Both the position numbers and the translations under genes were made by a program. Below are positions 492 to 10,549 of a DNA stretch of 11,830 nt, piece after piece (the first letter of the stretch is position 1; each line of letters opens with the position of its first letter). The stretch lies in the IMG/VR virus record IMGVR_UViG_3300006057_000043, one strand, 5' to 3'. The notes beneath the pieces are model-generated. The model had not been told where the DNA came from, searched no databases, and worked only from the letters and a program-made list of their open reading frames with translations. Source of the stretch: a virus.

Positions 492-520
492 ACCTTAGCA
501 GAGTAGACGCTGTTGGTCAA
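492..520 (-). promoter_or_regulatory. sigma-A-type promoter: TTGACC-N17-TAAGGT, 5 nt before the ATG at 485
   Basis: Minus strand reads TTGACC AACAGCGTCTACTCTGC TAAGGT CACGC ATG. One of nine copies of the same architecture. The -35 overlaps the CCA end of the upstream tRNA-like RNA. Confidence 0.5.
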
Positions 521-521
521 G

Positions 522-675
522 TTGGTGGGCCGGGGAGGCAATGATCCTCCCATCCGTGAGGGGGAAACCGCAGCGGCTCGCTTCGGGTTCTAGACCCCTC
601 AGCGACCGAAGCCAGCTCCTTCCCTTTGTCAGCTACCCGTCGGTAGCCTGCGCTCTACCCTTGAGCTACGGCCCT
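522..675 (-). ncRNA. atypical ~155-nt tRNA-like RNA (tRNA-type ends, long internal insertion)
   Basis: 5' GGGCCGU with D-arm GCUC-AAGGGUA-GAGC. 3' end is T-arm GGGAGG-AUCAUUG-CCUCCC, then CGGCCC-A-CCA, which pairs with the 5' strand. About 95 nt of hairpin-rich sequence replaces a normal anticodon/variable region. Confidence 0.3.
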
Positions 676-708
676 TGGCCCCCGGTCGAGATTTGACCCC
701 GACCGGGG
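676..708 (-). ncRNA. tRNA acceptor/T-arm minihelix H1 (11-bp stem, loop GUCAAAU, 3' GCCA)
   Basis: RNA CCCCGGUCGGG GUCAAAU CUCGACCGGGG GCCA. 11 contiguous pairs, a 7-nt T-loop-like loop, then discriminator+CCA. It abuts the neighbouring elements with no spacer. Confidence 0.5.
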
Positions 709-855
709 ATGGTCCACACGCAAGGGGTTGAACCCCGGCCCACGGTACCCCCCTCCTGGCGCTTGCAATCGCCATCGGGCTTCTTCCGTGGGTGTCACCT
801 CCACTCCACGTCCCCGGCGTCGACACCGGAGGGCTTATGTGGCTGACCATGTGGT

Positions 856-889
856 TGGTGGCCGGCCAGGCTTTGACACCTGACCGACC
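856..889 (-). ncRNA. tRNA-like minihelix H2 (11-bp stem, loop UGUCAAAG, 3' ACCA)
   Basis: RNA GGUCGGUCAGG UGUCAAAG CCUGGCCGGCC ACCA. 11 bp including two G-U pairs. Immediately 3' of the CUA tRNA. Confidence 0.5.
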
Positions 890-890
890 A

Positions 891-966
891 TGGCGCCCCT
901 CGTGGGACTTGAACCCACAACCAAGACTTTTAGGGAGTCCTGCTCTGCCAGTTGAGCTAGAGGAGC
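891..966 (-). tRNA. tRNA, anticodon CUA (amber/UAG-reading; putative suppressor), CCA encoded
   Basis: 76-nt cloverleaf: acceptor GCUCCUC/GAGGGGC, D-arm GCUC-AACUGGCA-GAGC, anticodon arm GGACU-CCCUAAA-AGUCU, T-arm GUGGG-UUCAAGU-CCCAC, G73, CCA. Positions 34-36 are CUA. Position 33 is C rather than the usual U. Confidence 0.6.
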
Positions 967-967
967 T

Positions 968-1001
968 TGGTCGCCGGCCAGGATTTGACCCCTGACCGGC
1001 G
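968..1001 (-). ncRNA. tRNA-like minihelix H3 (11-bp stem, loop GGUCAAAU, 3' ACCA)
   Basis: RNA CGCCGGUCAGG GGUCAAAU CCUGGCCGGCG ACCA. Confidence 0.5.
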
Positions 1002-8039: not shown

Positions 8040-8470
8040 GCCCCCAGTGTAGCAGGCTCGACTACACGGGTCAAGGTGGTCTCGGAGTCCACGAGGTCGA
8101 GATTGACGGGGTCGATACCCCGGGACACGTCGAGCTGACCCACCTCGATCTTCGCCAGCCGACGAGCCAGCTCCTCTTCGTGTAGGGGTGCCGGAAGAGC
8201 GGCGATGCGCGCCTGCTCCTTGGCGACCAAAGCGGCTTCCTTCTCCCGCTCTTCCCGCTCCTCGTTCTCCTTGATGATCTCCTCGTGGAGAACGAAGGCC
8301 TCCTTCTGGAGGCGTTCCATCTTGGCAATACCCTCCTCGGTCGACGGGCACAGCTCGAACTCGTCCGCCAAGGCCTCGAAGCGGGCAACGTCTTCATCGT
8401 TGGGGCGCGTCTGTAGGCTCAGGGCCTCGTGCATCAACCCGTAGACGTAGGCCCGACGGTGGTCTCGCAT
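8036..8470 (-). CDS. hypothetical Glu-rich coiled-coil protein (144 aa)
   Basis: MRDHRRAYVYGLMHEALSL...EEIIKENEEREEREKEAALVAKEQARIAAL... Begins 8 nt after the methyltransferase stop. Ends in TGA overlapping the next ATG. Confidence 0.5.
   Translation of the reverse strand: MRDHRRAYVYGLMHEALSLQTRPNDEDVARFEALADEFELCPSTEEGIAKMERLQKEAFVLHEEIIKENEEREEREKEAALVAKEQARIAALPAPLHEEELARRLAKIEVGQLDVSRGIDPVNLDLVDSETTLTRVVEPATLGA
8046..8074 (-). promoter_or_regulatory. sigma-A-type promoter TTGACC-N17-TACACT, 6 nt before the ATG at 8039
   Basis: Minus strand reads TTGACC CGTGTAGTCGAGCCTGC TACACT GGGGGC ATG. Confidence 0.5.
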
Positions 8471-8478
8471 GAGGGGAG

Positions 8479-9213
8479 TCACTGGACTTCCAAGCAACGG
8501 GCCTCGGCGATCTTGATGGCCTCGGAGTTCTTGTCGATGAGCCACACTCGCCGGCCGGCGGACAGGGCGGCCACACCGGTCGTTCCCGAGCCACACATCG
8601 GGTCAAGCACGAGGTCACCCGGATTCGAGTAGAGCCCGATGATCCGGTCCATCAGCTTGAGGGGCTTCTGGGTGTTGTAGCCCGTGCGCTCCTTGCTCGT
8701 GGTGGACATGATCGAGATGTTCCAGACGTCCGTGAGCACGCGGCCCTCAGGGTGGAACCCTGGCCGGCCCTCGACGTCAGGGGTGGCGTAGGGCTCCCGC
8801 ATGGTGTTGAAGGTGTACTTGGCCTTGGGTCCACCCTTGACGTAGTGGAGCAGGTTGTCGTGCTTGCGCGACAGGCGCGTCTTGGATGCCCCACCCGAGG
8901 CGTAGTTCCAGATGATCTCGTTGACGAACGCGTCGTAACCGAAGATCTGGTCGCACATGACCTTGGCGTAGTGCACGGCATGCCAGTCAAGATGCAGAAT
9001 GAAATTGCCCCCAGTCCGCATCAGTTGCTCGACTGCCCCGACGTTCTCGTGCAAGAAGTCCATGTAGGACTCCATGTCGGGAAATCGGTCGTCGAAGTCG
9101 CCTCGGTCCCGATCCGTGTAGAACGGAGGGTCCATGTAGACGAGATCCACGAAGCCAATTCCGGCCACCACGTCGCCGGCCTCGCCGAGCTGGATCAAGC
9201 AGCGATCGTTCAT
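8479..9213 (-). CDS. DNA methyltransferase, beta-class (N6-adenine/N4-cytosine family)
   Basis: Motif IV-like VDLVYMDPPF precedes motif I-like LVLDPMCGSGTT. This is the beta-group order of the amino-methyltransferases. ATGA overlap with the upstream gene. Confidence 0.8.
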   Translation of the reverse strand: MNDRCLIQLGEAGDVVAGIGFVDLVYMDPPFYTDRDRGDFDDRFPDMESYMDFLHENVGAVEQLMRTGGNFILHLDWHAVHYAKVMCDQIFGYDAFVNEIIWNYASGGASKTRLSRKHDNLLHYVKGGPKAKYTFNTMREPYATPDVEGRPGFHPEGRVLTDVWNISIMSTTSKERTGYNTQKPLKLMDRIIGLYSNPGDLVLDPMCGSGTTGVAALSAGRRVWLIDKNSEAIKIAEARCLEVQ

Positions 9214-10028
9214 CGTCCCTCGTTCTCGGCCCGGAACTTCTCGGTGTCGAACATCCAGAAGGCGTCCATCGAGCCATCACGACCCAGGCTCTCGACCACG
9301 CAGGATGCCCACGGCAGCTCGTCGTAGGCCCCGTTGGGGGACGCGGCGATGTAGTCCAGCACCTGGGTCTTGCGCTGGTGCCAGTGACCGTGCACGACGA
9401 TCTCGGGGCGTGTCTGCTTGATGGCGTCCTTGATGATGGCCCGGCCCCGCTCAGCGGCGTTGAAGGTGCCGATGTCGAGCCTGAAGGGCGAGTACATCTT
9501 GGCGCCCTGAGGGGAATCGTGGGTGATGAGGATGTTGACCTTGTCGTCGCCGAGGTTGAGGAGATCCTCCTCGTTCGGCTCCTCCTGGCCCGGCCACCAG
9601 TCGACGCCCGGCGTGCGTCCCTGCCAGTCGACCGAGAAGGCGCCACCGAGCGCGGCGAACTCGACCCCGTCCCAGTTCCAACGGTGGCCGTTGTGGGCGT
9701 GCAGGAGCATGCCGGGGATGCACGGGACGACGTCCACGAAGCCCTCGATGTCCCGAGGGTTCTCCTCGACGTATACCTCCAGGGAGTCGTGGTCCTCGTG
9801 GTTCCCCTTGATGAAGTAGGCGGGAATGCCGGCCTTCTTGGCCTTGCGGGCGATGGAGGCGAGGAACTCGACGCCTCTCGGCTCCCCGAGCTTGGTCACG
9901 TAGGCCGGGTAGAAGCCGAAGTCGCCGACCTGGACGATTCGGTCCGCGTCAGTGTCGGCGGCGACCTTGATGACCTCCTTCCAGAATCCGCTATTGAAAT
10001 GGGTGTCGCCGACAAACAGAATTCTCAT
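9210..10028 (-). CDS. calcineurin-like metallophosphoesterase (lambda Ser/Thr phosphatase-like)
   Basis: GDTHFN, GDFGFYP, GNHED, ITHDSP and GHWH motifs. Start placed at MRILFVGD (10028) because the -10 TACAGT lies 6 nt upstream. The track's 10064 start would fall inside that promoter. Confidence 0.8.
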   Translation of the reverse strand: MRILFVGDTHFNSGFWKEVIKVAADTDADRIVQVGDFGFYPAYVTKLGEPRGVEFLASIARKAKKAGIPAYFIKGNHEDHDSLEVYVEENPRDIEGFVDVVPCIPGMLLHAHNGHRWNWDGVEFAALGGAFSVDWQGRTPGVDWWPGQEEPNEEDLLNLGDDKVNILITHDSPQGAKMYSPFRLDIGTFNAAERGRAIIKDAIKQTRPEIVVHGHWHQRKTQVLDYIAASPNGAYDELPWASCVVESLGRDGSMDAFWMFDTEKFRAENEGR

Positions 10029-10034
10029 GGGGCC

Positions 10035-10064
10035 ACTGTAGCAGATTCGGCTACTAATCGCCAA
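10035..10064 (-). promoter_or_regulatory. sigma-A-type promoter TTGGCG-N18-TACAGT, 6 nt before the ATG at 10028
   Basis: Minus strand reads TTGGCG ATTAGTAGCCGAATCTGC TACAGT GGCCCC ATG. Confidence 0.45.
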
Positions 10065-10512
10065 TCGAGATTCTGCCAGTCCCGTAGATGTACTCCTTCC
10101 AGTACATCCACTTGGCGTCGGTCACCCAGAAACCCCAGAAGCTCTCGCCGGGCTCGACAGGGTTGTCGCGCTTGGCCCCGGAGAAGACCAGCGTCCAGGT
10201 CTGCGAACCAAGCAGCTCGTCAATCCTGTGGCGGTGCTCCGACGGGTGATAGGCGAGCGACCCCGGCCGGCGACGCACGATGTCGTGATCCGGTCCCATC
10301 TCCTCGACGTAACCCCCTTTGAGGACCAAGGTGGCGAAGCTCCAGGGGTGGTCGTGTTGGGCTCGGTCAGCGTCTGGACGTCGAATGTGATGGATCTTGA
10401 TGCCGAACCAGGGAGTCGTAAGCACGTTCCACCGAGTAAGGTAGATGTCACCCGGGTCGCTCACATCCTCAATATCGAATCGCTCGAAGAGCTTCCACTT
10501 GCCGATCTTCAT
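10054..10512 (-). CDS. hypothetical His-rich protein (152 aa; possibly metal-binding)
   Basis: MKIGKWKLFERFD...GIKIHHIRRPDADRAQHDHPWSF...HPSEHRHRIDE. Start chosen at the leaderless ATG 7 nt after -10 TACAGT. The track's upstream 32 codons overlap that promoter. Ends in TAG. Confidence 0.5.
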   Translation of the reverse strand: MKIGKWKLFERFDIEDVSDPGDIYLTRWNVLTTPWFGIKIHHIRRPDADRAQHDHPWSFATLVLKGGYVEEMGPDHDIVRRRPGSLAYHPSEHRHRIDELLGSQTWTLVFSGAKRDNPVEPGESFWGFWVTDAKWMYWKEYIYGTGRISIGD

Positions 10513-10519
10513 GGCGTCG

Positions 10520-10549
10520 ACTGTAGCAGGAGGTACTACTCCTCTACAA
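10520..10549 (-). promoter_or_regulatory. sigma-A-type promoter TTGTAG-N18-TACAGT, 7 nt before the ATG at 10512
   Basis: Minus strand reads CTTGTAGAGGAGTAGTACCTCCTGC TACAGT CGACGCC ATG. Confidence 0.45.

Follow-up and report, generated by a model that had tools for sequence, protein, structure and literature searches.

Recurring probable sigma-70-type promoters with predicted leaderless starts in an uncultured phage of a probably actinobacterial host

Promoters of Streptomyces carry a -10 element TANNNT and a -35 element BTGACN, and 22% of the mRNAs are leaderless, with AUG preferred as the start (PMC8780764). In mycobacteria, about 25% of mRNAs are leaderless (bioRxiv 10.1101/834739). For the Thermus phages Lalka27a and YS40, the transcription start site is reported to lie 6 nucleotides (nt) after TANNNT, and most transcripts are described as leaderless (bioRxiv 10.64898/2026.04.20.719267). 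A recurring promoter-like motif was analyzed here in 11,830 nt of viral DNA (IMG/VR record IMGVR_UViG_3300006057_000043; this whole stretch is hereafter called the window), which is a fragment of an uncultured phage. Its sites were read on the minus strand, the coding strand. They are very likely promoters of the sigma-70 family, group 1 (sigma-A/HrdB, as in a high-GC Gram-positive host), and are predicted to give mostly leaderless mRNAs.

All nine copies listed in an earlier note on this DNA were found on the minus strand (Table 1). They share a layout of TTGNNN, a spacer of 17-18 nt, usually TGC, and TANNNT; conservation is bipartite and the spacers vary freely. The note had placed a -35-like hexamer 17-18 nt upstream of each -10, and a TTG-initial hexamer does stand at 17-18 bp in nine of nine sites, reading TTGAC(A/C) in six. 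The spacer had been said always to end in TGC, which is so in eight of the nine; W3304 has AGG. The -10 pattern given, TA(C/A/G)(A/G)(C/G)T, describes most sites and misses TAGGTT, TACGTT and TACACA. A -10 of the form TANNNT, in which the second base is A and the sixth T, is present in eight of nine and fails at W4000 (TACACA). A 12.6 kb metagenomic contig, L003, shares 9,073 identical bases with the window and adds 3.5 kb upstream, giving a merged contig of 15.4 kb; two more full copies lie in L003 beyond the window end, at 657-665 and 2896-2904. Three weaker combinations of a -10 with an ATG, absent from the earlier list, were also found on the minus strand, and two of these have the same -10 as W3304, TAGGGT.

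The motif is far commoner than expected from shuffled sequence, a Markov model or control DNA. There are seven copies of TGCTANNNT, all on the minus strand, and shuffles predict 1.24. The composite TTGNNN-N14/15-TGCTANNNT occurs seven times on the minus strand and never on the plus strand, against a first-order Markov mean of 0.025, and was absent from 620 kb of unrelated metagenomic loci of 55-75% GC. For TANNNT-N6/7-ATG there are nine matches on the minus strand, none on the plus strand and an expectation of 1.7.

At most sites the spacing between the -10 and the start codon is also near-constant. The earlier note counted six sites with an ATG 5-7 nt downstream; the leaderless spacing is real, the number of such sites is seven and the distance is 6-7 nt, which puts the first base of the ATG 7 or 8 nt past the -10. 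Two of the seven precede tRNA arrays, where the ATG opens open reading frames (ORFs) of just 22 and 31 codons. That the arrangement implies leaderless mRNAs is supported by the lack of a Shine-Dalgarno sequence (SD) at the close-ATG genes and by the positions of the N-termini. An SD is missing only at promoter-proximal genes, with none in the 6-7 nt before the ATG, and is present (AAGGAAG, GAGGGA, AGGAGG or similar) at the internal genes g2, g7, g13 and g15 and at the leadered gene for a major vault protein (MVP) homologue. Against Pfam, g6 aligns to Metallophos from residue 1, and g12 aligns to cREC_REC from residue 4. The g9 orthologues of the window and of a related contig, L007, share 41% identity, and their alignment comes to a few residues from the N-terminus; the start is ATG in one and GTG in the other, in each case 6 nt past the -10. 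The same ATG starts were picked by an independent gene caller. The PHROG profiles for g5 and g6 extend further at the N-terminus. Leaders of 35-40 nt had been proposed for the MVP-like and PTH2-like genes, which holds for the former (37 nt, with an SD); the PTH2-like gene has 44 nt and, downstream of its start, an in-frame TAG.

Related contigs, located through homologues of MVP, g12 and g6, contain the same motif. These are L007 and L049, which represent the same phage (MVP 68% identical), L246 (MVP 62% identical), L249 (cREC 63% identical) and L255 (g6 59% identical, with synteny across 13.7 kb). In the 43 kb made up of the window with L003, L007, L249, L255 and L246, 26 promoter-like sites were counted, every one of them on the coding strand. 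Orthologous promoters keep the hexamers, the spacing and the distance to the start; their spacer sequences diverge (Table 1). The promoter of the MVP orthologue in L246 reads TTGTCA-18-TGA-TATGGT and is leadered. Essentially no such promoters were seen in more distant or unrelated high-GC loci. A metagenome scan with MVP yielded 80 loci, of which only L049 has the motif; the remainder were used as negative controls. The MVP relatives L001 (54% GC) and L002 (33% GC) in IMG/VR lack the motif, the TGCTANNNT matches in L002 being AT-rich chance matches inside genes. Among distant MVP-bearing phages, L251 has no such promoters, and L252 has ordinary TTGAC-type promoters with leaders and without the TGCTAC signature.

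Table 1. Promoter-like sites, orthologous promoters, GTAG boxes, short ORFs and a terminator. Positions refer to the window unless a contig is named; aa, amino acids.
Feature	Position and strand	Context	Sequence and spacing
W10520	10520-10549, minus	g5 (cupin-like, 152 aa); Class II	-35 TTGTAG 10549-10544, spacer 18, GTAG 10539-10536 (its TAG is the stop codon of g4), TGC, -10 TACAGT 10525-10520, 7 nt to ATG 10512
W10035	10035-10064, minus	Operon g6 (metallophosphoesterase)-g7 (DNA methylase)-g8; Class II	TTGGCG, spacer 18, GTAG 10054-10051, TGC, TACAGT, 6 nt to ATG 10028
W8046	8046-8074, minus	g9-g10, within 3' end of g8; Class II	TTGACC, spacer 17, GTAG 8065-8062, TGC, TACACT, 6 nt to ATG 8039
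W7349	7349-7378, minus	MVP-like gene (7311-4714); Class I	TTGACC-18-TGC-TACGTT, 37 nt to ATG, SD AAGGAAG
W4616	4616-4644, minus	tRNA array 1 (Pro-CGG, Trp-CCA, Gln-CTG x2); Class I	TTGACA-17-TGC-TACGGT, 7 nt to ATG 4608
W4000	4000-4028, minus	Upstream of g12 (cREC_REC); doubtful	TTGCAG-17-TGC-TACACA, 6 nt to ATG 3993
W3304	3304-3332, minus	tRNA array 2 (Leu x4, Asn, Gln-TTG); Class I	TTGACA-17-(AGG)-TAGGGT, 7 nt to ATG 3296
W1596	1596-1624, minus	PTH2-like gene and third tRNA/tRNA-like array; Class I	TTGACA-17-TGC-TAGGTT, 44 nt to ATG 1551
W492	492-520, minus	g17 (157 aa, Cys-rich); Class I	TTGACC-17-TGC-TAAGGT, 6 nt to ATG 485
Weaker candidate 1	2149-2144, minus	Ferredoxin gene	TAGGGT, 6 nt to ATG 2137
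Weaker candidate 2	1796-1791, minus	22-aa hydrophobic ORF	TAGGGT, 6 nt to ATG
Weaker candidate 3	1705-1700 and 1680-1675, minus	13-aa hydrophobic ORF	TTGACA, 19-nt spacer, TAGCAT, 7 nt to ATG
Intrinsic terminator	4667-4690, minus	Closes MVP unit just upstream of W4616	GGGCGGGGCC-TTCG-GGTCCCGCC, then T-run
g6 pair	W10035; L255_7501	Orthologous promoters	TTGGCG-18-TGC-TACAGT-6-ATG; TTGGCG-18 (GTAG)-TGC-TACGCT-6-ATG
g5 pair	W10520; L255_7016	Orthologous promoters	GTAG-N10-TACAGT-7-ATG in both
g9 pair	W8046; L007_639	Orthologous promoters	TTGACC-17-TGC-TACACT-6-ATG; TTGACT-17-TGC-TACGGT-6-GTG
tRNA array 1	W4616; L007_4245; L255_12792	Orthologous promoters in three contigs	
tRNA array 2	W3304; L249_1479	Orthologous promoters	L249_1479: TTGACA-17-TAGGTT, 7 nt to ATG
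GTAG boxes with TAG as upstream stop	Window 10536-10539, 10051-10054; L255 122-125, 7002-7005, 12406-12409; L249 306-309		
Short ORF 1	4540-4608, minus	Before Pro-CGG, Trp-CCA, Gln-CTG; P/W/Q-rich	MKNDRWRTNAPEPTVAPFRQQP (stop)
Short ORF 1 orthologue	L255 12805-12870	Before Pro-CGG/Trp-CCA/Gln-CTG array	MKNDRWSTAPEPTEAPFRQQR (stop)
Short ORF 1 orthologue	L007 4258-4323	Before Pro-CGG/Trp-CCA/Gln-CTG array	MTTFRWLPAPRPTLASFRQQR (stop)
Short ORF 2	3201-3296, minus	Before Leu/Asn/Gln array; L/N/Q-rich	MQRKTASNQSQGSFSIRLLLSLPLQRGPVNL (stop)
Short ORF 2 orthologue	L249 1492-1554	Before Leu/Asn/Gln array	MTSARLSLQLTGPLSGPVNI (stop)
L246 short ORF	L246 592-642	Before tRNA-Ser(CGA) and tRNA-Asn; GTG start, SD	VSRTRSSSSSRNAIGG (stop); SSSSS-R-N (five consecutive Ser)

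As proposed here, RNA polymerase holoenzyme would read a TTGACN -35, a 17-18 bp spacer ending in TGn (an extended -10) and a TANNNT -10. The transcript 5' end, which we infer from this geometry, would lie 7-8 nt past the -10 and at seven of the nine sites would be the A of the ATG. A start at that nucleotide would leave no 5' untranslated region and no SD, and the mRNA would thus be translated leaderless; downstream genes in each short operon would rely on ordinary SDs or on overlapping stop and start codons. The earlier description of a minus strand broken into short operons, with promoters of their own for the tRNA arrays, agrees with the positions of the sites, which delimit units and precede the arrays. 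The predicted units would be g5; g6-g7-g8; g9-g10; the MVP-like gene with its own terminator; tRNA array 1, with g12-g13 behind it; tRNA array 2, with g14-g15 behind it; the PTH2-like gene with array 3; and g17.

The sites had been taken for a single promoter class. Two classes were found, about half of the sites carrying an additional conserved GTAG box in the spacer (Class II). Class I sites lack the box, have a plain -35 and -10 with a good TTGACA and mostly a 17-nt spacer, and occur at the tRNA arrays, the MVP gene and g17. The tRNA-array promoters also share an A-rich segment, GAGAA(A/T)GT, upstream of the -35 (at W4616, A-rich GAGAATGT). Class II spacers are mostly 18 nt. GTAG stands exactly 11 nt before TGC, or 10 nt before the -10, in four of the 11 sites of this phage (permutation p ~0.001), and the box is also present in L249, L255 and L246. 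GTAG-N10-TANNNT has 12 coding-strand sites in the 43 kb of lineage DNA; the control count was 23 in 963 kb, or about one expected per 43 kb. The box and the upstream half of the -10 region make up an inverted repeat, GTAG(C)-N7-(G)CTAC, which is longest at L003 2883-2903 (CCGTAGC-N7-GCTACGG). In six of 13 cases the upstream gene ends at the TAG of the box; in two the box directly follows a TAG stop, and in five neither applies. Where the box supplies the stop, the distance from stop to next ATG is fixed at about 22 nt. These stops may explain the high share of TAG stops in the region.

The promoter reading is supported by the bipartite geometry, the restriction to one strand, the position at the starts of genes and tRNA arrays, the SD pattern and the conservation in orthologues. 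The actinobacterial-type host suggested earlier fits the gene affinities and the Streptomyces-like -10 and -35. Every named cellular homologue of g12 is from Micromonosporaceae, and the best cultured-phage matches of g6 are Mycobacterium and Streptomyces phages; the 998 cultured-phage records that match the concatenated proteins include 432 Mycobacterium phages and 149 Streptomyces phages, mainly through g6. On the strength of the g12 homologues and the phage affinity of g6, an actinobacterial host is the best guess. The host is thus probably actinobacterial, and its primary sigma factor would presumably recognize the sites. The closest cellular MVP homologues, L006 and L008, were considered as host candidates and set aside, since they are from bacteria at 42-43% GC and hence not host-like.

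Several points weigh against the promoter reading and the host assignment. Every function proposed here is read from the sequence of an uncultured phage, and the sequence base is small, comprising some 15 kb from this genome and some 28 kb from relatives. Several Class II sites have a poor -35 (TTGTAG, TTGGCG) or none (L255_3054, L255_7016). W3304 has no TGn. At W4000 the -35 adjoins the 3' end of a tRNA-Gln, the -10 lacks the normally essential T at -7, and the site has no counterpart in L249, where the g12 orthologue overlaps the upstream gene. Since TAG is the upstream stop in six of 13 boxes, part of the recurrence of the box may reflect gene ends. The near-uniform TGCTAC(A/G)GT, tighter than typical host sets, and the poor -35s would also fit a phage-modified polymerase. 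The host assignment depends on the affinities of a few genes, and the same combination of promoters and leaderless starts is known in Deinococcota (PMC12340547); a host from that phylum would be a less likely alternative.

The statistics already refute a chance or compositional origin in GC-rich sequence, to which practically no probability is given: only the generic looseness of TANNNT speaks for it, and shuffles, the Markov model and 620-960 kb of real high-GC DNA yield essentially no composite matches, the matches in the lineage being confined to one strand, at gene starts. Another explanation is that Class II sites, or all sites of the TGCTAC type, form a phage-specific temporal class for which the host core polymerase would be redirected by a phage-encoded factor, whether an appropriator/activator resembling T4 MotA/AsiA, a sigma of the phage itself or one similar to the factor proposed for Thermus phage late promoters. 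Conservation of the GTAG box at a fixed offset across four related contigs, the weak or missing -35 at some Class II sites and the unusually uniform -10 region would fit such a class. There is also a precedent in the late promoters of Lalka27a, where a special -10, TAGGGT, and an invariant spacer base led the authors to infer a phage factor (bioRxiv 10.64898/2026.04.20.719267). Most Class II sites, however, keep a TTGNNN hexamer at 17-18 nt, and the box lies within the spacer, at about -26 to -23, which is where an operator usually lies and not where an activator box would take the place of a -35. The available 15 kb shows no gene for a sigma or an appropriator, and this explanation appears rather unlikely.

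Alternatively, the repeats could be primarily operators, or repressor sites resembling stoperators, whose promoter likeness is accidental. Actinophages do have repeated regulatory sites near gene starts, such as the cluster A stoperators and the conserved inverted repeats of phiC31, and the GTAG(C)-N7-(G)CTAC repeat spans 17 bp and reaches 7+7 bp in L003. An operator alone would leave unexplained the constant 6-7 nt to the ATG, and it would not call for bipartite conservation exactly at -35 and -10 with a free spacer in Class I. SDs are missing precisely at these genes, and the tRNA arrays, which need a promoter, have these sites; a purely operator function is improbable. Even less probable is a cassette for translation starts on a polycistronic mRNA, through re-initiation (stop-N22-start) or in the manner of the start-associated sequences (SAS) of cluster K, with no promoter function. 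The fixed stop-to-ATG distance that arises where the box TAG is the upstream stop (six of 13 Class II sites), or where the box follows a TAG stop (two), is what such a cassette would predict, but five boxes are not stop codons, the motif has no SD-like purine run and precedes tRNA arrays as well as protein genes, and the -35 element would go unexplained. Sigma-70-family promoters remain the preferred reading of the sites, with Class II being most likely promoters of this type that are overlapped by the site of a dimeric regulator.

The sites resemble actinobacterial SigA/HrdB promoters in the -10 TANNNT, the -35 (B)TGACN, the optional TGn and a predicted purine start about 6-8 nt after the -10. 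In actinobacterial hosts 20-30% of mRNAs start at AUG or GUG, whereas seven of the nine sites of this phage set would be leaderless. The phage sites differ from host sets in a far tighter consensus, (C)TGCTAC(A/G)GT, in their very high density, about one every 1.4 kb over the 15.4-kb merged contig, and in that roughly half have a spacer box. Like the Thermus phages phiYS40 and Lalka27a, this phage would use host-type TANNNT promoters, some with TGn, to give mostly leaderless transcripts; in those phages a special -10 and a conserved position in the spacer set one temporal class apart. Unlike in the Thermus phages, the gene affinities are actinobacterial, and the extra element is a GTAG box in inverted repeat with the -10 rather than a single C at -25.

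Short repeats in one orientation near the gene starts of actinophages are also known as the cluster A stoperators and the SAS and extended SAS (ESAS) of cluster K mycobacteriophages. Stoperators of cluster A are contiguous asymmetric 13-mers bound by a repressor. The bipartite conservation and the variable spacer rule out identity with them. The SAS include a ribosome-binding site, and the lack of a purine-rich SD in the 6-7 nt before the ATG rules these out as well; the cluster K ESAS overlaps a promoter and has inverted repeats (PMC11373665). A promoter for a T7-like single-subunit polymerase, which would be contiguous over about 20 bp across the start, was rejected on the variation of the spacer and discriminator.

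At all five tRNA-array promoters of this kind, which belong to two independent families (W4616, L007_4245, L255_12792, W3304 and L249_1479), the gap between the -10 and an ATG is exactly 7 nt. Counted over the arrays, the short ORF begins right at the predicted transcription start in four of five cases. These ORFs have 20-31 codons and end 35-60 nt before the first tRNA. Their compositions are given in Table 1; the L/N/Q-rich ORF has the codons TTG, CTA, CTT, CTG, CTC, CAA and AAT, and the tRNAs downstream are four Leu, Asn and Gln-TTG. The fraction of cognate codons in the leaders is 0.19-0.35, against null means of 0.06-0.10 for 283 null short ORFs from the same DNA, and each leader scores highest for its own amino-acid set. 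Cognate enrichment in three independent leaders gave p = 0.025, 0.011 and 0.018 (Fisher combined ~5e-4), in a post hoc comparison. Enrichment was absent from about 25 tRNA arrays in unrelated loci and from the arrays of Streptomyces phage Faust, so the pattern is lineage-specific or, less likely, coincidental. In the array with the amber-suppressor tRNA, a TAG precedes the suppressor tRNA, which was counted among the leader-peptide cases.

The first leader, of about 105 nt, runs from W4616 to the tRNA-Pro (4503-4608, minus strand), and was aligned with L007 4258-4355 and L255 12805-12910. Its conservation exceeds that of the tRNA-Pro downstream. It folds into nested helices with three to four compensated pairs and with the stop codon of the short ORF in a hairpin loop, and two CGGAGCC copies are alternative pairing partners for its segment GGCUCCG. 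Scans of genome contigs for both conserved tRNA leaders gave no matches, and pattern scans of viral contigs for the GTAG-type promoter and for a conserved 15-mer of the leader gave only single chance matches in unrelated contigs. Two results count against classical attenuation, which is not demonstrated: no U-tract terminator follows the leader, and substitutions among the short ORF 1 orthologues are spread evenly over codon positions with no third-position bias, so that the peptide sequence is not clearly under selection. Control through Rho or through processing would be speculation.

A tentative proposal, itself on the unlikely side, is that the leaderless ORFs are leader peptides for the codons of the downstream tRNAs, forming a feedback attenuator, with the GTAG-box promoters as a separate, operator-bearing class. 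Ribosome pausing at the cognate codons would then report a shortage of those tRNAs, due to codon demand or to a tRNA-cleaving defence of the host, and would adjust read-through or processing of the phage tRNA precursor. As in the trpL, hisL and leuL attenuators, the ORF overlaps conserved RNA helices with alternative pairings; unlike in these, the controlled genes would be tRNAs and not biosynthetic enzymes, and the U-tract terminator is lacking. Leaderless short-ORF attenuators (polycysteine) exist in Actinobacteria (bioRxiv 10.1101/834739). No precedent for leader-peptide control of tRNA genes was found in a limited literature search.

Some tRNA predictions at the arrays are irregular. The first "tRNA-Leu(CAG)" of array 2 (3075-3151, minus strand; L249 1601-1677) has 77 nt, no long variable arm and a D-arm like that of the suppressor tRNA, and is therefore not a canonical tRNA-Leu. 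A tRNA-Arg(TCG) called by ARAGORN at 4416-4486 on the plus strand, overlapping the tRNA-Pro, has no Rfam support, so a mirror artefact is the probable explanation; the CGA codons that such a tRNA would decode are conserved in short ORF 1.

The PTH2-like gene (1150-1551, minus strand) is unusual in that its PTH2 domain starts upstream of the first usable start codon. Its sole in-frame ATG, at 1551, is followed five codons on by a TAG (1536-1534). A tRNA with anticodon CTA, an amber suppressor, lies within the PTH2 transcription unit at 891-966, so full-length PTH2 may depend on read-through; several genes near the PTH2-like gene still end in TAG. The spacer of W1596 (1602-1618, minus strand) is a perfect 8-bp palindrome, CACGGCCC-TC-GGGCCGTG, which might be a terminator for the upstream small ORFs or an operator. 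Interleaved with the tRNAs of the third array are four minus-strand hairpins (677-709, 857-890, 969-1001 and 1005-1037), each with 12-14 bp, a T-loop-like GTCAAA loop followed by NCCA, and about -24 kcal/mol; they resemble acceptor/T-arm minihelices. Neither ARAGORN nor Rfam picked up two tRNA-like sequences on the minus strand, 540-680 and 1040-1110. In one, the "anticodon" stem is of 6 bp with a 4-nt loop, and the other has tRNA-type ends, GGGCCG...CGGCCCACCA, and an insertion of about 70 nt.

The window has 63.7% GC, and every gene and tRNA gene is on the minus strand. ARAGORN called 11 tRNA genes on this strand and Rfam confirmed 11; the Rfam search of the window returned tRNAs only. Annotation identified an MVP homologue of 865 amino acids, and the other recognizable products are a metallophosphoesterase, an N6/N4 DNA methylase, a cREC_REC receiver protein, a ferredoxin and a PTH2-like hydrolase. 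PHROG families were matched by g4 (HNH), g5, g6, g10 and g14 and by a ThyX-like protein just outside the window. The window sequence recurs on short metagenomic contigs; the sequencing data that contain this phage are ENA ERZ27247944 and SRA SRR5581436, and those with relatives are SRR21686417 and ERZ27256499. A megablast search against 50,697 phage records gave no match to cultured-phage DNA. The MVP homologue (4714-7311, minus strand) is full-length, with a promoter and a terminator of its own. Its homologues in metagenomes number more than 2,600 and include phage contigs, bacteria of 42% GC (60% identity) and huge phages (41% identity).

The mechanism proposed here, in which promoters of the sigma-A type would lead to leaderless mRNAs, is already known and would now extend to a new phage lineage, and the earlier reading was essentially right. 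The new elements are the GTAG-box subclass and, on a more speculative footing, the match between leader ORFs and tRNA arrays. The practical value lies in a map of transcription units, in correct calls of leaderless starts and in a compact, strong promoter consensus for high-GC hosts. The division of the promoters into two classes by the GTAG box hints at a regulatory switch. If true, the coupling of ORFs to tRNAs would mean that phages sense limiting tRNAs and regulate their own tRNA supply, which bears on why and when phages express tRNA genes.

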